The notes under the pieces were generated by a model. It was not told the DNA's origin. It worked only from the letters and a program-made list of their open reading frames with translations, and searched no databases. A stretch of DNA of 64,000 nucleotides from Verrucomicrobiia bacterium (lineage in GTDB: Bacteria; Chloroflexota; Dormibacteria; Aeolococcales; Bog-877), in NCBI GenBank assembly GCA_035532155.1, contig DATKRN010000069.1:3233-67232 (forward strand), read 5' to 3'. Below, in pieces: positions 16,184 through 35,531 of this stretch. A program made the position numbers and the translations under genes. Numbering within the stretch: the stretch's first letter is position 1; each line of letters starts with the position of its first letter.

Positions 16184-16789
16184 ATGTCGATGATCACGTC
16201 ACGCGCAGCCGAGCGGACCGGTGCGGCGGGCTCCCTGGGGACCCGCGGAGCCGGCTGGCGGCGGCGGGTGGTCACAGCCGGCGTCCTGGTGGCGATGGCA
16301 GGCGGAGGGGCGGTGCTGGGGTCGGGCGCGATCGCGCAGGCCGCCTCGCGACAGGCTCCCCATGCGGGCAACCCGGTGGCTCGCTACCTCAGCGTCAACG
16401 TCGCGCACAAGACCGCCACCCTCACCCTGCTGGCGGGGCTCAAGACCGCCAACTACGGGTTCGACTTCAACGGCTACGCCAAGGGCGCGATGACGATCAG
16501 CGTCCCCACCCACTGGCGGGTCGTGGTGCACTGTGAGAACAAGGGCAACATCCCGCACTCGTGCGTGATCGTGGCCAACGCCAAGGCGAGCCTCCCGGTG
16601 TTCAAGGGAGCGGGGACGCCGGACGGCAAGAAGGGCATCGCGGCGGGGCACGCGGCGACCTTTGCCTTCACCGCGGGCAAGCCCGGCCACTACATCCTGG
16701 GCTGCGTCGTCCCCGGCCACATCCCGACCGGGATGTGGGACCACTTCGTGGTCACCGCCGGCGGCCGGCCCTCGATCTCGGCTCGCTGA
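16184..16789 (+). CDS. Type-1 copper (cupredoxin) protein, sulfocyanin/plastocyanin-like, Tat-type signal
   Basis: Copper-ligand pattern H(IPHSC)...C-x4-H-x4-M (GCVVPGHIPTGMWDH). N-terminal GWRRRVVTAGVLVAMAGGG resembles a twin-arginine signal. GGAGG ribosome-binding site 7 nt upstream. Confidence 0.8.
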   Translation: MSMITSRAAERTGAAGSLGTRGAGWRRRVVTAGVLVAMAGGGAVLGSGAIAQAASRQAPHAGNPVARYLSVNVAHKTATLTLLAGLKTANYGFDFNGYAKGAMTISVPTHWRVVVHCENKGNIPHSCVIVANAKASLPVFKGAGTPDGKKGIAAGHAATFAFTAGKPGHYILGCVVPGHIPTGMWDHFVVTAGGRPSISAR

Positions 16790-16860
16790 TCCGATCGGGT
16801 CCCCGAGCACCCGGGCGGCCGGCCTCCTCGAGGCCGGCTCCCGGGCAGCCCCGGGCCCGC

Positions 16861-18087
16861 CCGGTCGGCCTGGTCCTGGGAGTCGCGCTCGCGGCAGCCG
16901 GGCTGGGCGGGTGCGCCCCATTCCGCGGGGGTGGGGCCACCCTCGCACGGTCCCCGGCCAGCCCCGCTGCGTGCTGGGATCAGCCTTCGCGGACCCTGCT
17001 CGGGGCCGCGGCGCTCTCGGCGACGCAGGTCTGGGCGGTTGGGGCCCAGCGCGCGGGCGGCCCCCGAGCCCTGGTGCGGACCCTGGTGGAGCGGTGGGAC
17101 GGTCTCAGGTGGGCCGTCCTCCCCAGCCCGGGTCCACAGGACAGCGTCCTGTACAGCGTGGCGGTGGTGTCCGCCGCCGACGTCTGGGCGGTCGGGACCG
17201 CGGGGACGGGTCCCGGCGACAGGGGGTCGCTGCCTCTGGTGGAGCACTGGAATGGGCGATCCTGGCGCCTCGTCCGCCTCCCCGGCCTCGTTCCAGCGGG
17301 GTCCTCGGCCGCCCTCCTGGCGGTCACCGCCTGGGCCCGCGGCCCGGTGGTGGCGGTCGGCTCGGTCGCCATCGGCCGGGGCCCGTCGCGCCCGCTGGTC
17401 GTGCGCTGGACCGGCTCCCGGTGGCAGGGCATCCCGGTCGCGCGGGGTCCAGGGGTTTCCGCCTCCAACTCCCCCGCCTCTCTGGTCGGGGTGGTCGCGC
17501 TGGCGCCGTCGAGCGTGCTCGCGATCGGAGCCGCGGGGGCGGGATCGCGCGAGCACGCGCTCGTGCTGGAGGGGTCCCTGCGCCGCCTTCAGCCAGTCAG
17601 CTCCGCTGTCCTGGGTGCGCGGATGACCTCGCTCACCGCCGCCGCGGCCACGGCGGGGGGCGGTCTCTTCCTGGCCGGGACCACTCCGGCGGGTGGCGGC
17701 AGTGCCAGCCTGGTGATGGCGCGGCGGGTGAGGGCGAGCTGGGCACTCGACCCGGCGCCGGGACCCGGACGCGCCTATCGCGAGATCGCCGCGATCGCGG
17801 GGAGCTCGCCCCGCGACGCGTGGGCGGTGGGCGCCTTCGCCAATGGCCCGGGCGGGCCGAGCGCGCGGCCCCTTGTCGAGCATTGGGACGGCAGGGCCTG
17901 GCGGGCGGTCGTGGTTCCGGATCCGGACCCTGGCCCGGGTGCGGATGGCGGCCTCGACGCGGTCGCGGTCGCCGGCCCCGCGGATGTGTGGGCGGTGGGC
18001 GGGTCCACGGTGAGACGGTGCGGCCCGACGCTGCCGTTGGCGGAGCACTGGGACGGCCACCTTTGGTCGGTCGTGGCGGCGCCCTGA
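16861..18087 (+). CDS. Lipoprotein with five W-rich ~60-aa repeats (beta-propeller-like)
   Basis: Lipobox LGGC. Repeats LVERWDGLRW, LVEHWNGRSW, LVVRWTGSRW, LVEHWDGRAW, LAEHWDGHLW, each followed by a ...VWAVG.. motif. The start codon is unclear: no ATG, and a possible GTG near 16735 would overlap the cupredoxin 3' end. Coordinates begin at the signal peptide. Confidence 0.5.
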   Translation, partial: PVGLVLGVALAAAGLGGCAPFRGGGATLARSPASPAACWDQPSRTLLGAAALSATQVWAVGAQRAGGPRALVRTLVERWDGLRWAVLPSPGPQDSVLYSVAVVSAADVWAVGTAGTGPGDRGSLPLVEHWNGRSWRLVRLPGLVPAGSSAALLAVTAWARGPVVAVGSVAIGRGPSRPLVVRWTGSRWQGIPVARGPGVSASNSPASLVGVVALAPSSVLAIGAAGAGSREHALVLEGSLRRLQPVSSAVLGARMTSLTAAAATAGGGLFLAGTTPAGGGSASLVMARRVRASWALDPAPGPGRAYREIAAIAGSSPRDAWAVGAFANGPGGPSARPLVEHWDGRAWRAVVVPDPDPGPGADGGLDAVAVAGPADVWAVGGSTVRRCGPTLPLAEHWDGHLWSVVAAP

Positions 18088-20733
18088 CTAGGGGCTGTCG
18101 GGTCCCCCGGGCACGGCAGCCGCCGTCCCGACCGGCATCCACCCGTCCTCTCCGGCCTGGGCGAGTCCCCCCCGTCCGCTGGGGTGAGGCTGCGCCCGGG
18201 GGGGCGATGGGGGTGCCTCCCGGTGCAGGAGTCGCCCGAGCGCGCTGGCCAGGAAGAGGGCCGCGGCCGCCAGCGCCAGCCACCACCACACTCCCACCCA
18301 GCCGCCCCGCGTGAGCACTGCTGGGTCGGTGGCGGAGAGGAGCCGCCCGCCGGTCTGGACCGCGAGCTGGCCCAGGCCGGTGGCGTCCCCCGGCTGGGGC
18401 CGGTACTCGCTCGGATACGGCACGACGACCCTCCCGGAGAGGGCGGGGAGCCGACCCCCGAAGCTGAGGCGGACCGGGTGGACGCCGCTCGCGACGCCGG
18501 TCAGATCGGCCCGAAAGATCAAAGGTGCGACCTCCACCAGCCGAAGGGTGCGGCCCGTCCCGCCGGCGGTGGCGAGCGCCGCGCCGACGGTCGTGACGGC
18601 GAGGCCGGAGGTCCCCGCCCCCGCCAGGTCGACCTGGAGCTGGGGCGGAGATCCCAGGATGACCGAGGGGGAGACGGCCGGGGCGGCCGGGGCGCGCTCG
18701 ACCCAGCGCACCATCTGGTTCCAGAGCGGGGTTCGGGTGCTCCAGGCCAGCGCCCAGGGTGCTCCGACCCCGGGGGTCCAGGTCACGACCCGGCCCAGCC
18801 CGACCTGCCACTGGGCCAGCACCGGGTTCAGGCTTCGGCCCGGCCCGCGGCCCAGCAGATCGGCGAGCGCGCCGGGCGCCAGGGTGGTGATGACGTTGCC
18901 ACCGAGCGGGGGGAGGGCCTGTCCCGCCAGCGATCCGACCACCGGGCTGTCCGTGCCGGGGCGCACCGCCACCGGGCCGTGCACCCTTACCGGCTTGACC
19001 GCGAAGGCCGTTTCCTTGGCGAAGATGCCGGGGAGCTGGCGGGCGTTGTCGGTGACGTAGGCGTGGCCTCCGGTGGCCTGCGCGATCCGCCGTAGCAGGC
19101 TGCGGTCGGCGTCGCTCCCCAGCGCCACGGTGGCCACCTGGACGTGGTCCCGACGCAGCTGCTGCAGCAGGGGGGCGTAGTTCTCGGGCTGGCTGATGCC
19201 ATCGGTCATCAGGATCAGGTGCTTCTGCGGGGCCGGGCTCGCGAGCAGCTGGCGCGCTCCCGCCTGGAGCCCGGCGAAGATGTCGGTCCCGCCGCTGGCC
19301 TGGAGGCCGTTCACCGCCGTGATCACGTGGTGCTCGACCGCTCCCCGGGTGACCCGCTGGATCGGGACCAGGACGTGCGCCGCGACGTCAAAGTCGACCA
19401 CCCCCAGCTGATCCGAGTGCGCGGCGATGAACTGGGCCGTCTGGGTCCCCGCCACGTGGACCATGTCGATCTTGGGCACCCCGCCGGCCAGGTCGATCAT
19501 CGAGCCGGAGTGGTCCAGCACCAGCTCGATCGCCACGTTCTGGCGCTGGAGGTTTCCGGGCACCAGGCTGGTGACCGGCAGCAGCGACTGCAGCGGCGAG
19601 TGGGCGTAGTCGCCCAGCGAGAAGCTGTGAGGCCCGCCCAGCACCACCAGGCCGAGACCGTCCGACCGCACCGCCTGGGAGAGGGCGGCCACGTGGGCGG
19701 CTGTCAGCGCCGCCGCGGGCAGGTCGTTGAGCACCACCGTGTCGAGCCCGGCGTAGCCGGCGGGGCTCAGCGGCAGGTCGGCGGGAGTGCGGGGGCTGAC
19801 CCGCAGCCCGAGATGCCCGAGCATCGCGGTGAGGGCGCTGCGGTCCGGACCGGGGCTGCCCACGGCCAGGACCCGGGGGGCCGCCAGCACCTGGCTCACC
19901 GCCGCGAGCCGGTTGTTCTGCGGCCTCGTGTCGCCCGGCAGCGCGATCTGCACCACGAACGACGCCCAACCCGGCGCCGCCGCCGTGTACGTGAGCAGGA
20001 ACGGGGTATCTCCGGTCCGGAGCTGGACCGTCTGGGAGGCTGTCGGGGCCCCCGCGCGGGCCACCGAGAGGGTGGCCCGCGCGGTCACGGTGCTGCGCAC
20101 CGTGACCAGGAGCGGGATCGAGTCACCGCTGCGCACGACCGCGGGAGCCTGCACTGCCGTCACCGCCGCGTCCCGGCGCCTCGGGTCCGTGAGGGCCACG
20201 ACATCGACCCTCACGTGGCGCGCGCGCGCCAGCGGGACAGCGTTGAGGAGATCGCCGCGGGTGGGGGTGCCGCCGCTCAGCAGCACCACCCGTCCCCCCC
20301 GTGGGGTCAGCGCCACAGCGGCCCGCACCCCCGATCCGATGTCGCTCGCGCCCGCGGACGGCCCGCGCGGCGTGCTCGCCCGAATCGCAGCTGCCGAATC
20401 CGGGACGGTGCGGGCTGTAGTCGCGACCTCGACCACGCGGCACGGCCGCGGGCACGCGGCGCGCACCTCGCGGGCCCACGCCATCTCGGTCGCGGCCATG
20501 CGGGCGTCGACGGAGGCCGACCGATCGAGCACCAGCACGGTCGCCGGGCGGGCGGCGAGGCTGATCTCAGGCTGGGCCAGCGCGAGTCCCACCAGCATGG
20601 CCGCCAGCCCCTGAGCCAGCACCCTGCGCCGGGGCCGACCCCGGTACCGTCGCACGCTGGCCGCGGCGACAACCAGCAGCACCAGCACGGCGGGGGCGGC
20701 CTGGGGCGCGACCAGCCCAACTCTCACGGACAA
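18088..20733 (-). CDS. Large von Willebrand factor A (VWA) domain membrane protein (BatA/BatB-like)
   Basis: N-terminal TM helix and C-terminal TM helix. MIDAS motifs VLDRSASVD and VLDHSGSM plus GGTDIFAGL. 881 aa. Confidence 0.8.
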   Translation of the reverse strand: MSVRVGLVAPQAAPAVLVLLVVAAASVRRYRGRPRRRVLAQGLAAMLVGLALAQPEISLAARPATVLVLDRSASVDARMAATEMAWAREVRAACPRPCRVVEVATTARTVPDSAAAIRASTPRGPSAGASDIGSGVRAAVALTPRGGRVVLLSGGTPTRGDLLNAVPLARARHVRVDVVALTDPRRRDAAVTAVQAPAVVRSGDSIPLLVTVRSTVTARATLSVARAGAPTASQTVQLRTGDTPFLLTYTAAAPGWASFVVQIALPGDTRPQNNRLAAVSQVLAAPRVLAVGSPGPDRSALTAMLGHLGLRVSPRTPADLPLSPAGYAGLDTVVLNDLPAAALTAAHVAALSQAVRSDGLGLVVLGGPHSFSLGDYAHSPLQSLLPVTSLVPGNLQRQNVAIELVLDHSGSMIDLAGGVPKIDMVHVAGTQTAQFIAAHSDQLGVVDFDVAAHVLVPIQRVTRGAVEHHVITAVNGLQASGGTDIFAGLQAGARQLLASPAPQKHLILMTDGISQPENYAPLLQQLRRDHVQVATVALGSDADRSLLRRIAQATGGHAYVTDNARQLPGIFAKETAFAVKPVRVHGPVAVRPGTDSPVVGSLAGQALPPLGGNVITTLAPGALADLLGRGPGRSLNPVLAQWQVGLGRVVTWTPGVGAPWALAWSTRTPLWNQMVRWVERAPAAPAVSPSVILGSPPQLQVDLAGAGTSGLAVTTVGAALATAGGTGRTLRLVEVAPLIFRADLTGVASGVHPVRLSFGGRLPALSGRVVVPYPSEYRPQPGDATGLGQLAVQTGGRLLSATDPAVLTRGGWVGVWWWLALAAAALFLASALGRLLHREAPPSPPRAQPHPSGRGGLAQAGEDGWMPVGTAAAVPGGPDSP

Positions 20734-20766: not shown

Positions 20767-22206
20767 TCACCAAGCCGGCGACAGACGGTCCCGCTCCGCG
20801 AAGTACCGCAGCACGATGCTGCGATCGGCCGCGATCACCCCGCCTCCGGTGGCGGGCACCAACGGGAGGCCGGCCGCCCGCTGGCCTGGGGACCCGCCGG
20901 CGCGCACCGAGCGAGGTGATCCCGCCCCGCCCGCGCGAGCAGGTGCGGTGGCCGGCGGGCGCGTGGTGGCGGCGCTGCGGGCGGGGGCGAAGCCGGATTG
21001 GATCGGAAGTCTCCCAGGCAGCCGGGTCGACGAGGAGGAGAGGGCGTGGCCGTCCCGGGTGGTGCCTCGTTGGCGACCGGCGGACCCCCCGCCGGGGGGT
21101 GACGGGTGGCGGGCTGACGTGACCCCCCGCGTTCCCGGTCGGGCCGGCGCCGGCGTGCCGCCTCGTCGGGGGGAGCGCGTCGCATCCACGAGGGCGAGCG
21201 GTGCCGGAGCGGTGGCGGGGCGAGCGATGTGGGCGCCGCCGGCCGCGCCGGTGGCCTGGCCCGGCGAGCCCTGAGGGCTGCTCGTCGCTGGTGGGTTGGC
21301 CGGCGAGGCCGCCGCGCCGTGGGACCCAGCCCTCCCGCCCGAGGGACCCGGGGCACCCCGGCGGCCCGGGGCGCCCGCCGGGGACGGCTGGCTGCTCGCC
21401 GTCCGTGGCGCCGCCATGCCGGGTGCTCCCGGGATCGACGTGGGGTGGGCGCCCGGCCGAGACGCGCTCCCACGGGGTCCGGTCGACGAGTGCCGCCCGG
21501 CCGGGTGGGCCGCTCCGGGCGCTCCCCCCGTGGGCCCACGCAGGGCAGCGCTCCCCCGCGTGCTCCCCGGCCGGGCCGCCGATGTGCGGGCCTGGACCCC
21601 GTGGGTGACCGCGAGCAGGAGCACCAGGGCGATCGCCGCGCCGGCTGCGGCGGTCCACTCAGCCGGGGCGCGGCGGAGGGCAGGACGTCCGGTTCGCACG
21701 GTTGTGCCGAGCAACTGGCCCGCCTCCGCCACCACCCGCCGAGACAGCCCACGGGGCGGTTCGCCACCGGCTGTGATCTCAACCGCGGTGGACACCCGGG
21801 CGGAGAGCTGGAACTCCCGGTCCAGCAGGCGTGCAGTCGCGGACAGCGTCGGGCGGGCCCGCCATCCCCGGATGCTTCCCAGCAGAAGCAGCACCGTCGC
21901 GCCCACCGGGTAGAGCTCGGGAGAGGGCGCTCCGAGCCCGAGGGCGACCACCTCAAGTGTGAGCGCGAGGAGCAGGGCGACGATCAGGTGCCGACGGATG
22001 AGCACGATCAGGCGAATGCGGTGGAGCCCGCGGCACCACTGCCCCAGCTCGTCCGCCACCCCGGCCGGGGTGGCGGCTCGATCATGGGCGCCCGAGCCGG
22101 TTGGCACCACCTGAACCACGTCACGCGGGTCGGCCCGCAGCCACCGCGCCACGACCGCGACGCTCAAAGCGACAGACCCTTGGTGTTGTCCAGCGGTGGC
22201 CGCCAT
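20767..22206 (-). CDS. Membrane protein with two TM helices and a long Pro/Ala/Gly/Ser-rich tail (MoxR/VWA-operon-type)
   Basis: ATG at 22204-06. TM segments LIVLIRRHLIVALLLALTLEVVALGL and AAAGAAIALVLLLAV, followed by about 300 aa of low complexity. The tail could be partly a GC-frame artefact. Confidence 0.45.
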   Translation of the reverse strand: MAATAGQHQGSVALSVAVVARWLRADPRDVVQVVPTGSGAHDRAATPAGVADELGQWCRGLHRIRLIVLIRRHLIVALLLALTLEVVALGLGAPSPELYPVGATVLLLLGSIRGWRARPTLSATARLLDREFQLSARVSTAVEITAGGEPPRGLSRRVVAEAGQLLGTTVRTGRPALRRAPAEWTAAAGAAIALVLLLAVTHGVQARTSAARPGSTRGSAALRGPTGGAPGAAHPAGRHSSTGPRGSASRPGAHPTSIPGAPGMAAPRTASSQPSPAGAPGRRGAPGPSGGRAGSHGAAASPANPPATSSPQGSPGQATGAAGGAHIARPATAPAPLALVDATRSPRRGGTPAPARPGTRGVTSARHPSPPGGGSAGRQRGTTRDGHALSSSSTRLPGRLPIQSGFAPARSAATTRPPATAPARAGGAGSPRSVRAGGSPGQRAAGLPLVPATGGGVIAADRSIVLRYFAERDRLSPAW

Positions 22207-22376: not shown

Positions 22377-24032
22377 GTGCGCCCTTGGGGAGGCCTCCGG
22401 GTGAGGCGGGCGCCGTTCGGAGCCGCGCTGGCGGCGGCGACCCTGCTGGCGGGGCTGGCCGTATCCGCGTGCAGCGGACCGGCGACCGCGACCAAGCTGA
22501 CCTATCGGGCACCCAGCTACCACGACTGGCCCTACTTCGGTCGCGATCGGAACGCCACCCGCTATGCGCCCCAGACGCAGATCACTACCAAGAACCTGGG
22601 CCGGCTCGGGGTGGCCTGGAGCACCGGCCTGGGCCCCGGGCAGTACCTCGTCGAGGGATTCCCGGTGGAGGTCGGGCGCACGCTCTACATCACGACCTCG
22701 ACCGACGAGGTCCAAGCGTACGATGCCGCCACCGGCCGGCTCCGGTGGCAGTTCACCCCCACCGTCGACTTCTCGGCGTCCCAGGGCGTGGGCGGCTACG
22801 GCGTCACCGTCAATCGAGGGGTCGCGATCTCGGGTGGCAAGGTGTACGAGGTCACCTTCGACGACCACCTGGTGGCGATCAGCCAGGCGACCGGGGAGCA
22901 GCTCTGGTCGTCGACGGTGACCAGCGATGCGACCGGCGCCTACGAGTCGATGGCACCCACGGTCTATGACGGTCTGGTCTACGTGGGGGTGTCGGGCAGC
23001 GACTACGGCGTGCGCGGGTTCATCGCCGCCTACAACGCGAACACCGGCCGCCAGGTGTGGCGCTTCTACACGGTGCCGGCGCCGGGCACCGGGTGGGTGC
23101 CCAAGAACGGGGGCGGGGGCGCGATCTACATGCCGCCGACGGTGGACACCAGCAACGGCTTGGTGTATGCCGGGACCGGCAATCCCGCGCCCACGCTGGT
23201 GGGCGTCCACCGGCCCGGGCTCGACCTCTACAGTGACTCGATCCTGGCCCTGCGCGCGCGCACCGGCAAGCTGGTCTGGTACCACCAGGAGGTGGCCCAC
23301 GACCTGTGGAACTACGATGCGGAGTCGCCGGTCATGATCGTGAACACACGCATCCACGGACGCACGGTCCATGCGGTGGCCGAAGCCGGCAAGAGCGGGT
23401 ACTTCTTCCTGATGAACGCCGCGACGGGCAAGGACCTCTTCCCCCGCCTGGCCTTCGTCCGAGAGGACCATCGGCCTCCGACCACCAAGGGAACGCTGGA
23501 GTGCCCCGGACCGGTGGGTGGCTCCCAGTACTCGCCGCTGGCATTCGATCCCCAAACCCAGGCGGCCTACGTCTCGGGGATCAATTTGTGCTTCATCCTC
23601 ACCGTCAACCCCAAGGTGAAGGGGGGCGAGAACTTCGGCGGCACTCGTGAGATTCCCGCCAAGGAGAAGCCGACCGGTGTCTTCGCGGCGGTGAACCTGA
23701 CCACCGGCCGCTTCCTCTGGCGTCGCACCATGCCCACGCCGATGATCGGCGGGGCCACCACCACCGCCAGCAACCTCGTGATGACAGGTGACCAGCACGG
23801 CACCTTCTACATCATGAACGCCAAGACCGGCCACACCCTGTGGACCGCCGACCTGGGCCTGGCTTTCGGCTCGGCCCCGATCGTCTACTCGATCGGGCGC
23901 ACCGAGTACATCGCCGTCGCCGTGGGTGGGTCGGCGACCACGCTGGGCAGCCATCTCGGGAAGGTGGGGGCCCGCCTGGTGGTGTTCCGGCTGGGAGGCG
24001 TTCCCGTCGCCAGGGCCGCGCTCGGGGCCTAG
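22377..24032 (+). CDS. PQQ-dependent alcohol dehydrogenase-family quinoprotein (8-bladed propeller), lipoprotein-anchored
   Basis: Lipobox LAVSAC. PQQ-ADH propeller repeats. Active-site region HDLWNYDAES (W-N-Y-D). No vicinal Cys-Cys pair. Close paralogue of the 30614..32263 gene. Confidence 0.85.
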   Translation: MRPWGGLRVRRAPFGAALAAATLLAGLAVSACSGPATATKLTYRAPSYHDWPYFGRDRNATRYAPQTQITTKNLGRLGVAWSTGLGPGQYLVEGFPVEVGRTLYITTSTDEVQAYDAATGRLRWQFTPTVDFSASQGVGGYGVTVNRGVAISGGKVYEVTFDDHLVAISQATGEQLWSSTVTSDATGAYESMAPTVYDGLVYVGVSGSDYGVRGFIAAYNANTGRQVWRFYTVPAPGTGWVPKNGGGGAIYMPPTVDTSNGLVYAGTGNPAPTLVGVHRPGLDLYSDSILALRARTGKLVWYHQEVAHDLWNYDAESPVMIVNTRIHGRTVHAVAEAGKSGYFFLMNAATGKDLFPRLAFVREDHRPPTTKGTLECPGPVGGSQYSPLAFDPQTQAAYVSGINLCFILTVNPKVKGGENFGGTREIPAKEKPTGVFAAVNLTTGRFLWRRTMPTPMIGGATTTASNLVMTGDQHGTFYIMNAKTGHTLWTADLGLAFGSAPIVYSIGRTEYIAVAVGGSATTLGSHLGKVGARLVVFRLGGVPVARAALGA

Positions 24033-24070: not shown

Positions 24071-25099
24071 TCAGGCGCCTCGAGTCGGGACTCGGGCGAG
24101 CGCGTCCGAGATGATCTCCTCAGCGGTCACTGCGTGTCGCTCGGCGTCGAAGCTCAGCACCAGCCGGTGGCGGAGCCCGGGCAGGGCCACGGCGCGGATG
24201 TCCTCGGCCGCGAGGTGGTCCCGGCCGTCGAGCAGGGCGGTGATCCGCCCTGCCAGGCTGAGGGTGAGGGCGCCGCGGGGACTGGGTCCCAGGCGGACGA
24301 AGTCCCGCACCGGGGCGGCGGCGTCTGCCCCCGGCTGCAGCGCCAGCACCAACCGGCAGACGTAGTCGAGAATCTCGCCGCTGGCCCGGACCCGGGAGGC
24401 CAGGGCCCGCATCCGCCGGAGTTGTTCGGCATCAGCCTGGGGTCGGGCCCCGGGGACGGCCTCCCCGGTCGTCTCGGAGACGATGCGACTCAGCTCGACC
24501 TGGGAGGGGAACTCGAAGCGAAGCTTGAAGAAGAAGCGGTCCAGCTCTGCCTCGGGGAGGGGATAGGTGCCGTGCATTTCGACGGGGTTCTGGGTCGCCA
24601 TCACGCAGAAGGGCTGCGGGAGAGGATGGGTGACCCCGGCGATCGTCACCGTCCCCTCCTGCATCGCCTCGAGCAAAGCGCTCTGGGTGCGCGGCGATGC
24701 CCGGTTGATCTCGTCGGCCAGCACCAGGCCCGCGAAGACCGGACCCGGCTGGAAGCTGAGCCGCGGGGATCCCGCGGCGTCCTCCAGCAGGACGGTGGTG
24801 CCAGTGATGTCGGCCGGCATCAGGTCTGGGGTGAACTGGATTCGGCTGTACGGGAGGTCGAGGGCGGACGCGAATCCGCGGACCATGGTGGTCTTGCCGA
24901 GCCCGGGGGCACCTTCGAGCAGGGCGTGGCCCCCGGCGATCAGGCAGAGCAGCGCCCCGCGTACGGCCTCCGCCTGCCCCACTACCGAGGCGGCGACCGC
25001 GCCCTCGACGGCGAGGGCCGTGTCGCGGAAGGCGCGCGCAGCGGCGGGGGTGAGAGCGGCCCCGCCGCTCTCACCCCCAGTGTCCGAGGGGCTCCTCAT
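24071..25099 (-). CDS. MoxR-family AAA+ ATPase
   Basis: Walker A GAPGLGKT, Walker B LLADEINRASP, sensor region and the conserved MoxR C-terminal helical domain. 342 aa. Confidence 0.9.
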   Translation of the reverse strand: MRSPSDTGGESGGAALTPAAARAFRDTALAVEGAVAASVVGQAEAVRGALLCLIAGGHALLEGAPGLGKTTMVRGFASALDLPYSRIQFTPDLMPADITGTTVLLEDAAGSPRLSFQPGPVFAGLVLADEINRASPRTQSALLEAMQEGTVTIAGVTHPLPQPFCVMATQNPVEMHGTYPLPEAELDRFFFKLRFEFPSQVELSRIVSETTGEAVPGARPQADAEQLRRMRALASRVRASGEILDYVCRLVLALQPGADAAAPVRDFVRLGPSPRGALTLSLAGRITALLDGRDHLAAEDIRAVALPGLRHRLVLSFDAERHAVTAEEIISDALARVPTRGA

Positions 25100-26421: not shown

Positions 26422-26466
26422 TCGCGTCCGCCCGGCGCGTCCAGCCACCGCGTTCGGGGGAGAAGT

Positions 26467-26496: not shown

Positions 26497-27346
26497 AGCC
26501 TGTGGGCGGCGCTGTACGCCTCGTCGTTGGGGGGGGCCTCTCTGGAAGCGACCCAGCCCGACAAGTGGTCAAGGGGGCGACGATCGCGTGGGCGCCGGTT
26601 CCGGACGCTCGGCTCCGAGACCGATGCCTTAGGCCGTACCGCGGGGGCAACGCTCGGGCTCCCGCACCGAGGTCGAGCGCGTCTGGCTTGGATGTGGAGC
26701 GGCCGGGTCGCGACCTTTCAGCGCGACAGCCCGGGTGGTGACGAGCAGATCGGGGCCTTTGCTCGGAGTGGCTTCTGCATGCCGGACCCCGGAGGAACAG
26801 CCTCCCGCCTCGCGGCGGTGGAGCCGTCGAGGTTCCGATAGGTGGCGCGGTCCGGGAGATGCGTGCATCGCCGCCAGGGGGGCCCAGGACTTCACGGGCG
26901 AAACCCGTCCAACCCACCTCACCTCCGGTGTGTCGAAAGCCAGGAGCTGGTCGCGGTTGCGCTGGCGGCCGGAAAGGTGTACCTTCACAACGATTCGGGT
27001 GGGGGACGCCTTCCTCACCCGGGGAAGGCGGGTTGAGGATTCGGGGGTGGCGTGGATCCGGTGCGAGCACGACGCGTTGGTCGGCGCCAAGAGCTGGGGT
27101 CAGGGGTGCCGCCGCTCCCAGCTCAGCGGGGCGTCGGGTCGACGCACCGGGGCCGAGGCCAGCTCCATGGCTCTAACGACGCCCTGCGGTCGTCGCAGGC
27201 CTGCCGAGGTTCTCCCGTGGGTCCGGCTCTGGGTCCATCGACCGACCTTGGATCCTGCAGATCGTGGGCCTTGACGCAGTTCCAGAGCCAGGCGGGGTGA
27301 GCGACGTAGAGTCCGTGCTGGCTGAGAACCCGGTAGATCGGCAAAC

Positions 27347-29278: not shown

Positions 29279-29517
29279 TCTAGGCGATCGACTCGGAGCC
29301 CTTCCCTGGCTGGCCCACGGGCCATGTCCAGGGAGGGGCCACCGGGTCCCCGATTGCCCCCGGCGCGCGGGCTGGGGGCAATCGGTCGGCGGATCCTCGG
29401 TCTCTCTCCTCGAGCGGAGTCATGTCCGAGCCAGGATGAGTCAGGTGGTCGTGGGTATGATCAGCACGATCGGGGTGATGTCGCGGAGCGAGAGCGACAT
29501 GGCTCCTGAAGCGCTTC

Positions 29518-30492
29518 TTGAATTCTGAGGATCTCATGCATCGCAATCAGTCCAGGAGCCACTGGCGGATGCGTACGACAGCGGCTGCGCTCGCGACAGT
29601 GGTCGCGTCCCTGTGGATTGGGGCAGGGTCAGCCCTCGCCACTACCGGGGCCACCAACATTCGGCGAGCTCCCCGCTACGCCATCGCCCACAGCGTCATC
29701 GATGGATACCTGGGACGCTATCGGACGGGGCCGCAGGCGCCGAAGTCGCGAGTCATCACCAGTGACATTCTCATCACCATTGACTCGCGTGGATTTGCCG
29801 AGGGTGGCATTGCGATCATTGGCTACGATTCGCGCGGCAATGAGCAGCAGGTGCTGCTCACGCTTTACGACTTCCACGAGGTTTCCGGGAACATCATCGC
29901 GAATATGGTCGCTCCCACCGGCAACCCCGTGTACGGTCATATCACCTTCCACCACATCGGGCGCTCCCGGGGTCTGTCGGTGCTGATCCGGCCGATCCTG
30001 TATGCCGGGGTCGGCCCTGTCGCGTACAGATATCTCGGGGGTCCGAGCGGAGCGGCGGCTGCCAAGGGACAGGTGGCGCCCCGGGCCGAAGCGGAGACGT
30101 GGCACCCCGGGTGGGGAGCCATACCCGCGATCGTGGGACGATACCACCTGCTGCCCCGTCGATCGGGGAGCACGTCTCGCCGTGATCAGGTCACGGGGGG
30201 CGAGCTGACCGTCTTCATGCGGCAGGTGAAGCCGGGCAAACCGCGGGTTCCGAGCGGGATCTTGCACCTGGAGACGCGGACGTCGAGCATTGTGCTCTAT
30301 CTCACGCACTTCAAGTCGTCGGGCGCGCAGCGCACGGCGATTATCAATGGCGGGGCATTCATCGGTCCCGTGATCGGGGCGGTGCGTGGCACCAGTGTGC
30401 GCTTAGGCCAACTTGCCGTCACCCTGATGGCGGCGGGAATCCCGACCTCCACCGCGCAGCTGATTCGGTTCTCGGTCAGCGCCCAGCCGTGA
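29518..30492 (+). CDS. Secreted hypothetical protein (no family recognised)
   Basis: Signal peptide MRTTAAALATVVASLWIGAGSALA; alternative start at 29566. Sits between two PQQ-ADH genes in the lower-GC segment. Confidence 0.5.
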   Translation: MNSEDLMHRNQSRSHWRMRTTAAALATVVASLWIGAGSALATTGATNIRRAPRYAIAHSVIDGYLGRYRTGPQAPKSRVITSDILITIDSRGFAEGGIAIIGYDSRGNEQQVLLTLYDFHEVSGNIIANMVAPTGNPVYGHITFHHIGRSRGLSVLIRPILYAGVGPVAYRYLGGPSGAAAAKGQVAPRAEAETWHPGWGAIPAIVGRYHLLPRRSGSTSRRDQVTGGELTVFMRQVKPGKPRVPSGILHLETRTSSIVLYLTHFKSSGAQRTAIINGGAFIGPVIGAVRGTSVRLGQLAVTLMAAGIPTSTAQLIRFSVSAQP

Positions 30493-30613
30493 GCGGAGCG
30501 GATCCCATCGGAGTCCTCACGGTCGGTTGACCCTCGGCTGGTCCTCGATGGTGGCCCACCACGGGGCGCAGAGGCCAGATCCCGGTCCGAGCGGTGGCAG
30601 GTGGGGGCCGAGG

Positions 30614-32263
30614 ATGGCATCGGCTGGCACCTCGATGCTCCGATGCGTGCCGGGAGTGGCAGCCTGCGCCCTCATGTTGGTTGGCTGCGCCATCCCGGCT
30701 GGCTCCCGGGCCGGGACGTTGGGGAAGAGCCAGGGTTGGGCCCACTTTGGAAACTCGCTGGCCAACACCCGCTACTCGGGCCTGCGGCAACTGACAGCGG
30801 ACAACGTGACACACCTGAGGATCGTGTGGACTCGATCCGAGGGGCTAGCGCCGCAGCTGTGGGAGGACTACCCGGTCGTGGTGGGCCGGACCATGTACAT
30901 CACGACCAGCACCGACGAGGTGGAGGCGGTCGATGCGATCACAGGGAGAGTGCGGTGGAGCTACATCCCGCGCGTGGACTTCTTCGTGGCCGGCGCGGGA
31001 GCTCTGCCCTTGGCCACAAACCGGGGTGTCGCCGTCTCGGAGGGGCGAGTTTATCTCACCACTTTTGACGATCGCCTGGTGGCCCTCAGTGCCGCGTCCG
31101 GACGGCAACTTTGGCAGACGACCATTGCGAGCCCGACCCTTGGATACACCGAAACCGCGGGTCCGACGGTATACGACGGGTTGGTCTATGTGGGCAACTC
31201 CTCCACCGGTACGGGTGTGCGGGGATTCCTGGCGGCCTTCGACGCCGCCACCGGGACGCGCCGATGGCTCTTCTACACGGTGCCCCCTCCGGGCCAGGGC
31301 TGGGTGCCGCGGCGCGGGCACCACGGAGGCGGTGACGCCTGGATGCCGCCCACGATCGATCCAAGTACCGGGATGGTCTACGCTGCCACGGGCAATCCCA
31401 CGCCGGATCTGGTCAGATCGATCCGCCCGGGCTGCGACCCGCACGCAGACTCAATCGTCGCGCTCACGGCGCGAACCGGTCGACTAGTCTGGTCACGGAG
31501 TCTAGTCTGTGCCGATGCCTGGGACTACGATACGAGCCAAGCTCCCTTCTACTTCACGCTGCGGCTCGGGGGTCGAGCGGTTAGGGTGGTGGCCGACGGC
31601 AGCAAATCGGGTCGATTGATCGTGCTGGATGCACTGACCGGGCACGTGGTGTCGGAGTCGCCCTACCTCACGCCCTACACGGCACCCCATCTGACCCCGA
31701 CGACCCGGGGTGTGCGCGTGTGTCCGGGTGCCTTCGGTGGGTTGGAGTACTCCCCACCCTCCTATGACCCGGTCACCGGAAGCGTGTATCTCGACGGAGT
31801 GCGCGCATGCATGCGCTACACGTCGGAGTCGGCGGCGGCGGCGGCGCGCCATCGGCGAGGGCACCCGGATGTTGGGGGCAGCTACACGCTGCTGCGGACG
31901 CCCCGTCCGATCGGATACCTGGCAGCGGTGGATCCCGCCACGGGTCGGACCCGATGGGAGGATCGACTTCCCCTGCCGTCGGTGGGCGGCACCCTGGCGA
32001 CCGCGGGCGGCCTGGTCTTCACGGGCGACGACAACGGCAAACTGTATGCGGCAGCAGCCCGCAGCGGACGGATTCTCTGGTCGATCGACTTGCGGCTTCC
32101 GATGGGATCCGCGCCGTTCACCTATGCGGTCGCAGGGCGGCAGTACCTGGCGGTGGTGGCCGGAGGGTCGCAGCTCGCGGTGGTGAGCGGCCTGCAGACC
32201 GGTGGCCGGCTGGTCGTATTCGACTTGGCGGGAGATCACGCGCCGCGCCGCCGGGTGGGGTGA
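30614..32263 (+). CDS. PQQ-dependent alcohol dehydrogenase-family quinoprotein, lanthanide-type DYD signature, lipoprotein-anchored
   Basis: Internal ATG chosen before lipobox LMLVGCA (track ORF starts at 30527). Active-site ADAWDYDTS (W-D-Y-D). About 60% similar by eye to the 22377 paralogue (e.g. TMYITTSTDEVEAVDAITGRVRW vs TLYITTSTDEVQAYDAATGRLRW). Confidence 0.8.
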   Translation: MASAGTSMLRCVPGVAACALMLVGCAIPAGSRAGTLGKSQGWAHFGNSLANTRYSGLRQLTADNVTHLRIVWTRSEGLAPQLWEDYPVVVGRTMYITTSTDEVEAVDAITGRVRWSYIPRVDFFVAGAGALPLATNRGVAVSEGRVYLTTFDDRLVALSAASGRQLWQTTIASPTLGYTETAGPTVYDGLVYVGNSSTGTGVRGFLAAFDAATGTRRWLFYTVPPPGQGWVPRRGHHGGGDAWMPPTIDPSTGMVYAATGNPTPDLVRSIRPGCDPHADSIVALTARTGRLVWSRSLVCADAWDYDTSQAPFYFTLRLGGRAVRVVADGSKSGRLIVLDALTGHVVSESPYLTPYTAPHLTPTTRGVRVCPGAFGGLEYSPPSYDPVTGSVYLDGVRACMRYTSESAAAAARHRRGHPDVGGSYTLLRTPRPIGYLAAVDPATGRTRWEDRLPLPSVGGTLATAGGLVFTGDDNGKLYAAAARSGRILWSIDLRLPMGSAPFTYAVAGRQYLAVVAGGSQLAVVSGLQTGGRLVVFDLAGDHAPRRRVG

Positions 32264-32357
32264 GGGCGCGTCGGTGTCCCCTGCTGACCGGTCGAGCGTG
32301 ACAGGTGGTGCCGCGCCAGGTTCGGGCGCGGGTCACAGCTGTCGCGCGAATGGATGA

Positions 32358-34097
32358 GTGACGATGCCGGGGATGGGTCTCGGGCCTCAGACCATCGGCG
32401 GCTTCTACCCCTACCTGTTGGGCGAGCTGGCGGTGGTGGTTGCTGTCGTGATAGCCATCATGGTGGGCCGGAGCGTGTGGCGCGCTGCGCCAGGAATGAC
32501 CCGTGAGCGGACCCCGGAGGAGCCTGCAGGGATCCCGGCGGCCGGATCTTCGCGTGCGCGGCTGGTCCTCAGGCGTGCGATCGGGAGTCTGTGGATTGTG
32601 GACGGACTCCTCCAAGCCCAGCCGTCGATGCCGAATGGGTTCGCCGCGAATGTCCTGACGGCTAGTCTTCACGGCCAGCCGTGGTGGATGGCAAACGTCC
32701 TGACCTGGGAAATCTATCTTTGGCAGGCACATCCCATCCCGCTGGCGGCGGCCACGGTGCTCGTCCAGATTGGCATCGGCGCGATGATCCTCGCAGGGGG
32801 CGACGGCCGCGTGGGTCGGCTCGGAATTTGGGTATCCCTCGGATGGGGGATGGTCGTATGGGCTGGGGGCGAGGCCATGGGAGGCCTGCTCGCTCCCGGG
32901 GCGACGGAGATGATGGGAGCACCCGGCGCCGTTCTCGCCTACCTCGCATCGGCGCTGCTCCTGCTCGCCCCCAAGGAGTGGTGGGGATCCCGCCGCTCGC
33001 AGAGGGTGATTCGCACCGGCGTGGGCCTGCTGCTGCTCCTAGGCGCTCTGATCCAGGCCGTGCCCGGCGAGGGCTTCTGGCGTGGCCCCGGTCTGGCGGC
33101 GATGTTCCGAGCAATGGCCGCCGTGCCCCAGCCGGCGGCCCTGGCTTCCCCGATCCGGCACGCGGCTGGGCTCGCCGCGGCGTGGCCGATACCCCTCAAT
33201 CTCGGCTTGGTCGTGGCGATGGCCGGCCTCGGAGTGGGATTGCTCCTGGGACGAGCATCGCGCGCCTGGTCGGTGGCCGCCATGGTCTGGCTGGCGGTGA
33301 CCTGGTGGGTCGGCCAGGATTTCGGAGCCCTCGGATCGCGCACTGCCACCGACCCGAACCTCGCGCCCATCGTCGCACTCCTCCTGGTCGTGGCGTGGAT
33401 CAACCCGGCTGCGAACTCGATCCCGCACCGGTGGCGTCCTGCCCGACGGATCCGTGGGACCGAGGGGGCAGCAGTGGCGGGGCTGGTTGCGTGCGTGGTA
33501 GCGGGTGCCACCGGGCTGACTGCGCTGGCGACGCGCGCCGCCACGACCGCCGCGCTCACGATTGGGGGACCGCTCGTGGCGACCGGACCCGTTCCGCTCC
33601 CTTCCATCAGATTGATCGATCAAGCGGGACGCCCGGTCGAGCTGAGTCACTGGTCCGACCGGGAAGTCGTTCTCACCTTCCTTGACCCGGTCAGCTCGGG
33701 AGCCGCGCCGATAATCGCACAGCAGCTCGTCGCCGTCGACCGTGGTCTCGGCCGCCTTCGCCATCGCGTCGAGTTCGTCGCGGTGGCGTCCAACCCCGTC
33801 TATCGCAGCCTTGCGGTGGTGCGCTCCTTCGATGCCGAGCAGCACTTGGCCCGTGTGGCCAACTGGACATTCTTGACGGGGTCGCTCGCCCAGCTAGAGA
33901 GATTCTGGTCGGCCTTCCACTTGGTGATGATCGTGCCGTCCCTCGGGGGAGTGGAGCAGCCCCAGGTGATCTACTTCGCTCGTCCCGGTGGAGTCGAGGA
34001 GTGGTGGGCCGAGGATGTCGCTCCCAGCGACAATGCCGCTGTCAACCGCTCCTACATCACCCTGATCGAGCGGCAGGTTCGGACCATCCTGCGATGA
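32358..34097 (+). CDS. Polytopic membrane protein (DoxX-like, ~9 TM) fused to a C-terminal thioredoxin-fold Sco1/SenC-like domain that lacks the CxxxC pair
   Basis: N-terminal 380 aa hydrophobic. C-terminal LIDQAGRPVELSHWSDREVVLTFLDPVSSGAAP...HRVEFVAVASNP resembles Sco1/SenC/redoxin, but Ser and Ala replace the Cu-binding cysteines. Confidence 0.6.
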   Translation: MTMPGMGLGPQTIGGFYPYLLGELAVVVAVVIAIMVGRSVWRAAPGMTRERTPEEPAGIPAAGSSRARLVLRRAIGSLWIVDGLLQAQPSMPNGFAANVLTASLHGQPWWMANVLTWEIYLWQAHPIPLAAATVLVQIGIGAMILAGGDGRVGRLGIWVSLGWGMVVWAGGEAMGGLLAPGATEMMGAPGAVLAYLASALLLLAPKEWWGSRRSQRVIRTGVGLLLLLGALIQAVPGEGFWRGPGLAAMFRAMAAVPQPAALASPIRHAAGLAAAWPIPLNLGLVVAMAGLGVGLLLGRASRAWSVAAMVWLAVTWWVGQDFGALGSRTATDPNLAPIVALLLVVAWINPAANSIPHRWRPARRIRGTEGAAVAGLVACVVAGATGLTALATRAATTAALTIGGPLVATGPVPLPSIRLIDQAGRPVELSHWSDREVVLTFLDPVSSGAAPIIAQQLVAVDRGLGRLRHRVEFVAVASNPVYRSLAVVRSFDAEQHLARVANWTFLTGSLAQLERFWSAFHLVMIVPSLGGVEQPQVIYFARPGGVEEWWAEDVAPSDNAAVNRSYITLIERQVRTILR

Positions 34098-35266
34098 GCG
34101 GGGCCACGCGGCGGGCGCCAGGGTCTCCGGTACTCGCGGCGGTGGCTGGCCTGGTCGGCTTAGGCGTCATCGCCGGCTTCTGCGTGGCGAGGCTCCCGCA
34201 CGCTCCCCTCGCCTCCCCGGGAGGAGTCGCCACCGTGCCGACGCCCCGACAGCTCCTGGCGTGGGAGGCGGAGTCGGTAGCGTTCACTGGGCGCACGGTA
34301 GCCTGGGCCACCGTGCCCGACGGCACGTTCTGGCGCGTGGTGCGCTCGACCGACGCCGGGGTCCGCTGGCGCGACGTCACCCCGGCCGGCAACGACACCA
34401 GCGGGGGGCTCGACCTGTCAGCCATCACCCCGGATGAGGCGGCGGTCGCCTTCCGCCCCTATGGGTATCAGCATCGGTCGGCGTTCGCCCTCACCGTCGA
34501 CGGCGGCGCGCGCTGGCAGGTTGGCATGCTTCCCGGGGCGGCGGCCGGGCCGTCATCGATGGCTGTGGACGGCGCCGGTCGTTTGGTGGCGGTGCTGGCT
34601 GGCGGTCGGGCGGTGCGGAGCGCTGACGGTGGCCAGAGCTGGTCAGGTGTCGGGCTTCCCACTCTGATCGGGTGCGGGGCGCGGACGGTGCGGTTCGTGA
34701 GCCGATCGGTGGGCTGGATCGGCTCCTCCTGCCGCGGCCGCGCCGGGCTCTGGGCGACCGCGGACGGAGGGGCAACCTGGCGAGGGGAAACGCTGCCCGT
34801 CCGTGTTCCCAGGTCTGCGCTATGCGCGGTGGCGCCCCCCGGTCCTGTCAGTGATGGCGGCTCCGTCACCGTCGCGCTGACGGCAGGTGCCGACGCCACC
34901 CAGATCGCGGTCGTGCGGTGGCGCGGTCGCCGCTGGCAGCGGTTGGGTGCCCTCACGCTGGGACCGGGTCGGGTGATCGGCGCTGTTGCGGGGTCCCGCC
35001 TGTTCGTGGCGAAGCCGGCCGCCGCTGGGACCGACAGCGTGGAGCTGGCGCTGAGCCAGGACGCGGGGGCGAGCTGGCGAACACGCTGGATCCCGATCCC
35101 GTCGACTCAGGTCACAGGGATCAGCATCACCACCGCAGGCGTGGGTCTCATCGTTGGCCAAAGGCGTGGGGATCCGCGCCTTTGGGCCTCGCGCACAGGC
35201 ACGACGTGGTCGTTGGAGCCTCTGCTCGTGACCGCTCGGCGCACCCCACCCTACGGCTTGGCCTGA
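34094..35266 (+). CDS. BNR/Asp-box repeat (Ycf48/sortilin-like) beta-propeller protein, membrane-anchored
   Basis: ATGA overlap with the upstream gene. Five Asp-box repeats: STDAGVRW, TVDGGARW, SADGGQSW, TADGGATW, SQDAGASW. Confidence 0.7.
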   Translation: MSGATRRAPGSPVLAAVAGLVGLGVIAGFCVARLPHAPLASPGGVATVPTPRQLLAWEAESVAFTGRTVAWATVPDGTFWRVVRSTDAGVRWRDVTPAGNDTSGGLDLSAITPDEAAVAFRPYGYQHRSAFALTVDGGARWQVGMLPGAAAGPSSMAVDGAGRLVAVLAGGRAVRSADGGQSWSGVGLPTLIGCGARTVRFVSRSVGWIGSSCRGRAGLWATADGGATWRGETLPVRVPRSALCAVAPPGPVSDGGSVTVALTAGADATQIAVVRWRGRRWQRLGALTLGPGRVIGAVAGSRLFVAKPAAAGTDSVELALSQDAGASWRTRWIPIPSTQVTGISITTAGVGLIVGQRRGDPRLWASRTGTTWSLEPLLVTARRTPPYGLA

Positions 35267-35459
35267 GGCCGAAGAGCTCACGCCCCGGGTCACGACCTAG
35301 TCCGGACGCTACCACGCTCCGTCTCGAGCCGCCCGGCGCGCTCAAGTCGCGGCGCCCCCTCGCGCTCGTCGGAACTCCTGGGCACGGCTCCGACTGGGGG
35401 AATGCTGGCGCGCCGCCATCCCACGCGTCGCCGGGACGGGCAGCAGATCACCCGGGCAG

Positions 35460-35531
35460 CTGGGGCGGAAGGATTCGAACCTTCGAATGGGGGATCCAAA
35501 GTCCCCTGCCTTACCGCTTGGCGACGCCCCA
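35460..35531 (-). tRNA. tRNA-Gln (anticodon UUG)
   Basis: Folded by hand. Acceptor stem TGGGGCG/CGCCCCA with the U1:A72 pair characteristic of bacterial tRNA-Gln. U8. D-arm GCC-AGCGGTAA-GGC. Anticodon stem GGGGA/TCCCC with loop CTTTGGA (UUG). T-arm GAAGG-TTCGAAT-CCTTC. CCA not encoded. Confidence 0.8.

Follow-up and report, generated by a model that had tools for sequence, protein, structure and literature searches.

The stretch of metagenomic DNA analysed here (64,000 nucleotides, positions 3,233 to 67,232 of contig DATKRN010000069.1, assembly GCA_035532155.1; hereafter the window) carries three genes for pyrroloquinoline quinone (PQQ) dehydrogenases of the beta-propeller type, A, B and C, together with two cupredoxin genes, Cup1 and Cup2. 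Our data suggest that B, which on its active-site residues is the sole canonical enzyme of the three in this genome, forms part of an extracytoplasmic alcohol-oxidising module in which it would hand the electrons of PQQ to a type-1 (blue) copper site in place of haem c or a cytochrome c, a reading to which we give a probability of about 0.68. A preliminary description of the locus had already suggested that blue copper takes the place of cytochrome c, and the suggestion is now backed by fusions of close relatives of B to cupredoxins, by synteny in three related species and by the nesting of the B clade among enzymes that carry a cytochrome c domain.

In the proposed mechanism, B would oxidise an alcohol at its PQQ-metal site on the outer side of the cytoplasmic membrane, and the resulting PQQH2 would be re-oxidised in two one-electron steps, either by the type-1 copper of the Cup2 C-terminal domain or, in the relative P0003, by the copper of a fused domain. 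The immediate acceptor in the present genome would be the C-terminal plastocyanin-like domain of Cup2, which is encoded just upstream of B; from there the electrons would most likely continue to Cup1, which is of the sulfocyanin type, or else straight to a haem-copper terminal oxidase whose gene lies elsewhere. A and C are members of a clade of lipoprotein PQQ dehydrogenases, and some relatives in it are fused to cupredoxins of the sulfocyanin type. PQQ loading, lanthanide use, the nature of the substrate, direct PQQ-to-copper transfer and the path of the electrons to oxygen are inferred, as is a part in maturation for the MoxR and von Willebrand factor A (VWA) proteins encoded nearby. The PQQ-to-copper step would be downhill, because PQQ sites lie at about +90 mV and cupredoxins at +150 to +680 mV (PMC6315138).

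An alcohol dehydrogenase with a complete active site

The window, with a G+C content of about 74%, comes from a metagenomic contig of 77 kb (ENA ERZ27256799 k141_724787); to call genes, third-position G+C was used together with a comparison against the gene calls of the source. The three PQQ propeller genes described earlier are all present: A, B and C each match the eight-bladed PQQ beta-propeller family PF01011 of Pfam with 250-260 bits. Among solved structures, quinohaemoprotein and ethanol dehydrogenases match them best (1kv9, 1kb0, 1yiq and PedH, with E = 1e-61 to 1e-66), with 1kv9 for B (1.7e-66) and 1kb0 for both A (4e-63) and C (2.6e-62). On these matches the proteins resemble, as had been supposed, alcohol dehydrogenases (ADHs). 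The structures of XoxF and MxaF rank below the ADHs for all three, and the likeness to XoxF and the methanol oxidation that had been read into the locus give way to a likeness to ethanol and type II ADHs. The paralogues are well separated from one another, with pairwise identities of 32% (B-A), 36% (B-C) and 45% (A-C). B is identical in sequence to the database protein P0001, and its NCBI product name says only 'PQQ-binding-like beta-propeller repeat protein'.

In the alignment, the active site of B is complete: it has the Cys-Cys pair, the Arg of NRG, the Glu of GAEYG, the Asn of TGNAG, the WDYD motif and the Lys, and the motif HHDIWDYDTPSP is present. The Cys-Cys pair (VCCGWDNRG) is found in the entire B clade, and all orthologues of B retain the same checked residues, a degree of conservation that points to purifying selection on the catalytic site. 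B possesses neither a haem domain nor a CxxCH motif and ends 10 residues past the propeller. Its Shine-Dalgarno sequence and TTG start are conserved, and so is, across the B clade, the twin-arginine N-terminus GRRLWSL; from this N-terminal signal or anchor, B would be expected to oxidise alcohol outside the cytoplasmic membrane. The lipobox and twin-arginine signals earlier ascribed to the three dehydrogenases are recognisable, by eye only, as VSAC in A, LVGC in C and the twin arginine in B.

Blue copper at the position of the haem domain

A homology search with B returned B itself and four relatives at 75-85% identity; hundreds of proteins followed at 50-57%. The latter are nearly all quinohaemoproteins with a C-terminal cytochrome c domain (PF13442/PF00034), several of them labelled Gaiellaceae or Gaiellales. 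With 742-743 amino acids, two of the four close relatives, P0003 (77% identity to B) and P0005 (75%), exceed B by 100 residues. This extension consists of a proline-rich linker and a domain that is 69% identical to the C-terminal domain of Cup2, with the His, Cys, His and Met ligands conserved, and it begins at a junction (...WLFGLNGTxGP...) which is the same point where the Gaiellales enzymes enter their haem domain. In the AlphaFold2 model of P0003 (pTM 0.76), the propeller and the cupredoxin domain are both confident, and the linker between them (residues 635-659) is disordered; PedH is the structure that matches the model best, and TM-scores normalised on the target are about 0.77 for PedH and ADH II.

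Fusions of a second kind occur among the relatives of C, of which an exhaustive HMMER search found few close ones. P0154, 718 amino acids long and 46% identical to C, ends in a SoxE-type domain like Cup1, and the same type of domain is present in six remoter representatives (P0160, P0161, P0169, P0177, P0180 and P0273), while five further representatives from this search carry plastocyanin- or amicyanin-like domains of the CxPHPxM type.

A scan of species-representative genomes, seeded by P0003 motifs (mainly HHDIWDYD) and yielding at least 600 stretches, is biased by its seeds and gives no unbiased fusion frequencies. Among the matches listed, PQQ-ADH::cupredoxin fusions, often in tandem, occur in metagenome-assembled genomes (MAGs) labelled Alphaproteobacteria/Acetobacteraceae, Chloroflexota/Thermomicrobiales and Rokubacteria. 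The matches listed also include unfused enzymes with the DYD motif that are followed directly by a gene for an anchored plastocyanin-like protein, in one MAG from Actinomycetes (L020) and one from Gaiellaceae (L072), and unfused relatives with a small cytochrome c gene directly downstream (L086, L039 and L082). A neighbour-joining tree built from 260 propeller domains, rough and resting on a biased sample, includes 107 proteins with a cytochrome c domain and 30 with a cupredoxin domain; the latter appear in at least six separate places, and the B clade sits inside the cytochrome-c-fused group. One pattern in these sequences is clear: after the propeller, or beside it, the place of the acceptor is taken by either haem c or blue copper. 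Whether it amounts to a class of PQQ-ADHs, for which 'quinocuproprotein' would be a suitable name, in which type-1 copper, fused or alongside, takes electrons straight from lanthanide-PQQ with no haem between, is in our opinion an evenly balanced matter. The same even odds attach to the wider form of this proposal, that such enzymes arose several times, with three cupredoxin subtypes, in Dormibacterota-like bacteria, Actinomycetota, Chloroflexota and Alphaproteobacteria.

The two cupredoxins of the window

Cup1 and Cup2 both match the SoxE family PF06525 of Pfam (63 and 51.5 bits, above the cut-off of 21), and both fall far under the cut-off of the NCBIfam sulfocyanin equivalog TIGR03094 (Cup2: 37.7 versus 168.4 bits). 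In Cup1, the alignment shows all four type-1 copper ligands intact (PHS...GCVVPGH...M). Cup2 has two domains of very different condition. In its N-terminal, SoxE-like domain the copper Cys is replaced by Ser and the second His by Gln or Asn, and the same replacements are found in all three orthologues; therefore this domain cannot hold blue copper. It may, as a matter of speculation, serve in docking. The C-terminal, plastocyanin-like domain retains an intact His-Cys-His-Met site (H...C-x3-H-x4-M). The preliminary description had recorded two cupredoxins with signals for the twin-arginine (Tat) pathway: both proteins exist and their twin arginines can be seen by eye (WRRRVV in Cup1, WRRLAS in Cup2), with the amendment that only one of the two domains of Cup2 has a functional copper site. 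For Cup1, Cup2 and B, the choice of the long starts, which include the signals, is backed by good Shine-Dalgarno sequences, in Cup1 a GGAGG 6 nt 5' of the ATG.

The AlphaFold2 model of Cup2 consists of two all-beta domains with a pLDDT of about 90 each, and its best Foldseek matches in the PDB are laccases with two cupredoxin domains (probability 1.00). A role as a two-domain laccase or multicopper oxidase was rejected, as Cup2 possesses no HxH motifs of a trinuclear site and one of its type-1 sites is missing. A homology search found only 32 homologues of Cup2 among 5.8 billion proteins, and the family is therefore rare.

Conservation of the locus and identity of the host

A second contig from the same sample (L004) keeps the order Cup1, repeat protein, VWA protein, membrane protein, A, Cup2, spacer, B at 50-86% protein identity, with a syntenic Cup1 orthologue that is 77% identical. 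On the JGI contigs L090/L091, Cup2 is followed by B (85%), the secreted protein unk307 (65%) and C (69%), and on L001 the order is C, a B::cupredoxin fusion and the membrane protein mem577. L090 and L001 come from different samples and overlap at 99.6% nucleotide identity. Because of this overlap, and with the join made across samples, a sister species probably has a locus with Cup2, B, unk307, C, a DUF6788 gene, a fused B' (P0003) and mem577, in which the split and the fused forms occur together. Judged by gene order and protein identity, the module is conserved in three related species.

The taxonomic position of the host is less straightforward. A window protein of the glutamine-synthetase family is 67-73% identical to proteins of Candidatus Dormibacteraeota/Dormibacteria and 62-69% identical to those of Acidimicrobiales/Actinomycetota. 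On this one protein, the host is most likely a member of Dormibacterota, within the high-G+C Terrabacteria; the 'actinobacterial-type genome' of the preliminary description is not secure, and the NCBI label Verrucomicrobiae is not credible. NCBI labels at odds with protein similarity are not confined to this third-party-annotated MAG: the 85% relative is filed under Candidatus Micrarchaeia archaeon (proteins P0001, P0303 and P0305).

Metal, acceptor and catalytic competence

The proposal outlined above rests wholly on sequence, and several observations weigh against it; they concern the metal of B, the electron acceptor and the competence of the propellers, and are discussed here together with the rival readings that they favour. 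One of them bears on more than one rival: among the approximately 45 genes of the window and the upstream calls, Pfam scans found no genes for PQQ biosynthesis, for lanthanide uptake or lanmodulin, or for a terminal oxidase. The radical-SAM genes were tried as PqqE and rejected, their domains being MoaA-type (Mob_synth_C) and DUF3463 instead. The DUF3463 protein (42989-44836, plus strand) presumably resembles the hopanoid side-chain enzyme HpnH.

The aspartate two residues after the catalytic position (+2 Asp), which had been noted in two of the dehydrogenases, is present in all three, as WDYD in B and C and as WNYD in A, in which the catalytic residue itself is Asn. In the multiple alignment it shares a column with the Asp of PedH (6zcv, WDFD) and with the Thr of 1kb0 (WDYT), and so lies within the metal site, as the preliminary description had assumed. 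The corresponding residue is Ser in the Ca-dependent PedE and Asp in the lanthanide-dependent PedH (PMC5487730). From the complete metal and PQQ site and this additional Asp, which marks lanthanide-dependent enzymes, a lanthanide is predicted to be the likeliest metal of B. Alternatively, the module could work as proposed with calcium in B. For this reading speak the lack of any lanthanide-uptake or lanmodulin gene among the Pfam matches on the contig and the nature of the nearest solved quinohaemoproteins, 1kv9 and 1kb0, which we take not to be lanthanide enzymes (1kb0 being presumably Ca-dependent); in addition, the +2 Asp is only a predictor, needed, though not necessarily sufficient, for lanthanide binding in the enzymes tested. 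The exact alignment of the Asp with the lanthanide ligand of PedH, where 1kb0 and PedE have Thr and Ser, and the conservation of D-[YF]-D throughout the B clade and its cytochrome-c-fused sisters count against calcium, which we consider unlikely, yet the most serious of the alternatives.

The lanthanide motif as such is not new to these lineages. A 2026 preprint reports lanthanide motifs in most of the eight-bladed PQQ enzymes from many soil phyla, with Actinomycetes among the hosts, and discusses cytochrome partners only (10.64898/2026.07.10.737718); an earlier paper from the same group did not find XoxF in Gram-positive MAGs (PMC10875860). The novelty once claimed for lanthanide quinoproteins in Gram-positive lineages was thus overstated, as DYD in Terrabacteria is not novel by itself (10.64898/2026.07.10.737718). 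Our scan also met quinohaemoprotein ADHs of this family with both HHDIWDYD and a cytochrome c domain in two cultured Bacillota, Bacillus sp. JJ1562 (L030) and Lentibacillus salicampi ATCC BAA-719 (L035), and in a Virgibacillus MAG (L063); the cultured strains would be tractable as Gram-positive test organisms.

As regards the acceptor, six-frame translation of the window contains a single CxxCH match, in an out-of-frame 49-codon open reading frame (ORF) inside B, and the further 7 kb of contig upstream contain none. A nearby cytochrome c partner was accordingly rejected, there being no genuine CxxCH in about 71 kb of contig. Likewise, profile scans and the CxxCH scan of the window found neither a XoxG-type cytochrome nor a XoxJ-type solute-binding-like protein, and the absence of both partners from the cluster, as first described, holds. 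The cupredoxins could nevertheless be bystanders that serve the respiratory chain or copper handling, with the dehydrogenases feeding a cytochrome c or a membrane quinone encoded elsewhere. The contig covers 77 kb, and the remainder of the genome could encode a cytochrome c partner; cytochrome c domains are usual among relatives of the family (107 of the 260 sampled); Cup1 lies at least 6 kb from any dehydrogenase, beyond the VWA operon; and Cup2 is parted from B by a gap of about 940 nt, non-conserved and non-coding, which makes co-transcription uncertain. Against these points stand the fusion of both cupredoxin types to members of the matching dehydrogenase clades, the conservation of the gene neighbourhood in three species, the specific loss in the B clade of a cytochrome c domain that its sister groups kept, and the lack of CxxCH over about 71 kb. 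Taken together, we regard the bystander role as improbable and retain transfer from B to copper as the preferred reading.

The active sites of A and C, in contrast to that of B, are altered, and this is a further point against the proposal as far as these two paralogues are concerned. Both belong to a clade without the Cys-Cys pair. In A, the metal Glu has become Asp and the catalytic Asp has become Asn, while its orthologues (77% identical in L004, and P0155) keep GSEDG and WDYD. C keeps WDYD (ADAWDYDTS) and has Gly at a conserved acidic (Asp/Glu) metal-ligand position, reading SSTGTG at a place where an acidic residue stands in L001/L090 (about 70% identical), P0153, P0154 and P0156 (SSEDTG or the like). 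Codon-level comparison with the orthologues shows these lesions to be clean, in-frame substitutions of several nucleotides, which rules out sequencing or frameshift artefacts. A is probably impaired or re-purposed, and both A and C may be inactive or re-purposed in this genome.

That A and C alone are decaying paralogues or other non-working propellers is quite plausible, if somewhat short of an even bet. Extended to all three propellers, as cofactor-less surface proteins resembling the 'acido-empty-quinoprotein' family, this reading has on its side the lack of pqq genes on the contig, scores under the cut-off of 480 for the methanol/ethanol PQQ family TIGR03075 (A 326, B 359, C 321 bits), matches of 290-298 bits to TIGR04528 and the loss in A of the catalytic Asp and in C of an acidic ligand that 70-77% identical orthologues both retain, but it is the least probable of the rivals, given that B and all its orthologues keep every checked residue, that the TIGR04528 scores lie far under the cut-off of 650 and that many bacteria with PQQ enzymes import PQQ instead of making it (PMC12124388).

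The locus and its other genes

The features of the locus are compiled in Table 1. The G+C content at third codon positions (GC3) is 0.78-0.83 from Cup2 to the BNR-like gene (0.82 in the latter; window 25519-35531) and 0.88-0.95 in the flanking genes, among them those of Cup1, the VWA protein, A and MoxR; the low-GC3 sub-block from Cup2 to the BNR-like gene may be a horizontally acquired island.

Table 1. Features of the PQQ dehydrogenase-cupredoxin locus, with positions in the window.
Feature	Position	Strand	Description
Cup1	16184-16789	+	Type-1 copper protein of the sulfocyanin (SoxE) type; Pfam SoxE E = 2.7e-17 (63 bits)
Repeat protein	17074-18087 (start uncertain, 16801-17074)	+	'VEHWDGxxW' repeats
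VWA protein	18088-20727	-	Large, membrane-associated; Pfam VWA E = 2.8e-19
Membrane protein	20767-22206	-	Pro/Gly-rich tail; co-oriented with VWA gene
PQQ-DH A	22401-24032	+	Eight-bladed PQQ-family propeller, lipoprotein-type; Pfam PF01011 E = 8e-77
MoxR	24071-25099	-	MoxR-type AAA+ ATPase; Pfam AAA_3 E = 1.4e-58, plus AAA_lid_2
Cup2	25519-26421	+	Two-domain cupredoxin; Pfam SoxE 1e-13, Cupredoxin_1 5e-5, Copper-bind 2e-4
Cup2-B spacer	26422-27361		About 940 nt, non-coding; no convincing ORF
PQQ-ADH B	27362-29278	+	Pfam PF01011 E = 1e-76
unk307	29569-30492	+	Secreted protein, 307 amino acids; between B and C
PQQ-DH C	30614-32263	+	Lipoprotein-type propeller; Pfam PF01011 E = 7e-74
mem577	32364-34097	+	Polytopic membrane protein; C-terminal thioredoxin-fold (TlpA/Sco-like) domain without Cys motif
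BNR-like protein	34094-35266	+	Beta-propeller protein; weak BNR and Ycf48-like matches; last gene of low-GC3 block
tRNA-Gln (UUG)	35459-35531	-	ARAGORN; Rfam tRNA 62 bits; block end

The MoxR/VWA set noted in the preliminary description is present. The mxaRSACKL genes help in the insertion of metal for methanol dehydrogenase, and by analogy with MxaC/MxaL the VWA protein, which has a syntenic orthologue in L004 (62% identity), is a candidate metal-insertion or maturation factor. That it and MoxR may together aid metal insertion is speculation by analogy; MoxR is missing from the syntenic locus L004 and is therefore not an obligate part of the module. For the membrane protein beside the VWA gene the minus strand was chosen, because conservation of that frame with L004 (47-60% identity at both ends) outweighs the call on the opposite strand. 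The repeat protein gave no significant family match in Pfam and NCBIfam scans and has a 51% identical orthologue at the same position in L004.

The spacer between Cup2 and B is of similar length in relatives (L004, 10919-11878), its sequence being unconserved save for the ribosome-binding site and the TTG start of B. An Rfam search of the spacer gave no match, and this, with the lack of conservation against L004, ruled out a regulatory RNA or small gene. The secreted protein unk307 matched no family in profile scans, for which reason it was rejected as a XoxJ; a 65% identical orthologue occupies the same position in L090/L091. A 'Sco1-like fusion' reported from the block could not be upheld: the tail of mem577 matches TlpA (E = 0.18) and SCO1-SenC (PF02630, E = 0.053, 13.9 bits against a cut-off of 22.8) below threshold only, and the aligned Sco motif region reads DPVSSGAAP, with no Cys and no CxxxC. 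Mem577 was rejected as a Sco1 on this marginal similarity (E = 0.05-0.2) and the missing Cys motif; its 61% identical orthologue adjoins the fused ADH in L001.

Further genes of the window lie outside the locus. Divergent from Cup1 is a gene (13567-15975, minus strand) for an 802-residue fusion of an APH domain (aminoglycoside/choline-kinase-like phosphotransferase) and a class-III aminotransferase. A type III polyketide synthase of the chalcone-synthase-like kind (6666-7784, minus strand) stands beside an ICMT-family methyltransferase and an acyl-CoA synthetase (7875-9911, plus strand), and the region 6666-9911 thus has the look of a small lipid or polyketide cluster. Downstream of the tRNA gene, a secreted protein of 795 residues (36153-38540, plus strand) combines a single fibronectin type III domain with three internally repeated segments behind it.

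Relation to known systems

PQQ-ADHs are classed by the exit of their electrons: the soluble enzymes use a separate cytochrome c, the quinohaemoproteins have haem c fused to them, and a third class consists of membrane complexes. In sequence, A, B and C come closest to the type II quinohaemoprotein ADHs (ADH IIB, 1KV9, and ADH IIG, 1YIQ, of Pseudomonas putida HK5; qhEDH, 1KB0, of Comamonas testosteroni), which also rank among the best structural matches of the P0003 model. They share the eight-bladed PQQ propeller, with B also the Cys-Cys pair, Glu, Asn, Asp and Lys, and the junction at which their redox domain joins the C-terminal end of the propeller is the same. However, their +2 residue is Thr, where it is Asp here, and their haem c (CxxCH) is absent here, the orthologues having a type-1 copper domain instead. 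With haem c so replaced, copper would accept electrons from PQQ directly, and not after haem as does azurin, given as the natural acceptor of a type II ADH (PMC8348568).

PedH (6ZCV/6ZCW, of the PedH/ExaF type) agrees with B column for column in D-x-D and is likewise a single-propeller quinoprotein without haem, but it has Arg (DRNG) where B has Lys, and it is only about 26% identical to the P0003 model in the Foldseek alignment. Its partner is a soluble cytochrome c550, and it is a Sec-exported periplasmic enzyme of a diderm. The XoxF/XoxG/XoxJ system likewise has a PQQ propeller with DYD, and the MoxR/VWA genes near the propeller genes of the window recall mxa clusters; the system differs in being a weaker structural match than the ADHs, in the lack of any XoxG or XoxJ found in the window, and in that nothing in the window is specific to methanol.

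A parallel in terms of the acceptor is the couple of methylamine dehydrogenase and amicyanin, in which a dehydrogenase with a quinone cofactor gives its electrons directly to a type-1 copper protein that is encoded beside it; aromatic amine dehydrogenase and azurin form a comparable couple. These two dehydrogenases have a protein-derived tryptophan tryptophylquinone (TTQ) cofactor and an unrelated fold, and we know of no covalent dehydrogenase-cupredoxin fusion for such TTQ couples. Amicyanin accepts electrons from the TTQ enzyme methylamine dehydrogenase (PMC12723479). In the SoxM supercomplex of Sulfolobus, according to Komorowski and Schafer (2001) as cited in PMC6315138, sulfocyanin (SoxE) replaces cytochrome c as the donor to a haem-copper oxidase. 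Cup1 and the N-terminal domain of Cup2 belong to the same Pfam family, SoxE, but are bacterial and are associated with PQQ dehydrogenases instead of an oxidase operon. Finally, for Thaumarchaeota without cytochrome c, PQQ dehydrogenases have been proposed to feed blue-copper proteins (Aylward and Santoro, PMC7300363). Some of the enzymes of these marine heterotrophs combine DYD with the lack of a Cys-Cys pair (PMC7300363); the proposal was drawn from the absence of cytochrome c only, with no fusion or adjacency reported, and it concerns another lineage and other enzyme clades (PMC7300363).

Apart from azurin after the haem of type II ADH and the hypothesis for Thaumarchaeota, we found no PQQ dehydrogenase with a cupredoxin domain or a dedicated cupredoxin partner in the full-text literature; subscription journals lay mostly outside this search, and an earlier description is possible. 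The new element is the architecture, which reaches well beyond the window, and not the lanthanide dependence of B, which is a reasonable prediction.

Significance

If the reading holds, the PQQ-ADHs would gain a further type, linked to copper within one protein or between two, and the acceptor module would be interchangeable. It would also explain how alcohols can be oxidised outside the cytoplasmic membrane in bacteria that rely little on soluble cytochrome c. Single-polypeptide targets for the study of PQQ-to-copper transfer and of lanthanide dependence are available in the fusions (P0003, P0154 and the versions from Alphaproteobacteria and Chloroflexota), and a self-contained PQQ-copper enzyme could possibly be of use in direct-electron-transfer biosensors. 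The predicted range of lanthanide-type quinoproteins is, moreover, widened to poorly known lineages of soil bacteria.

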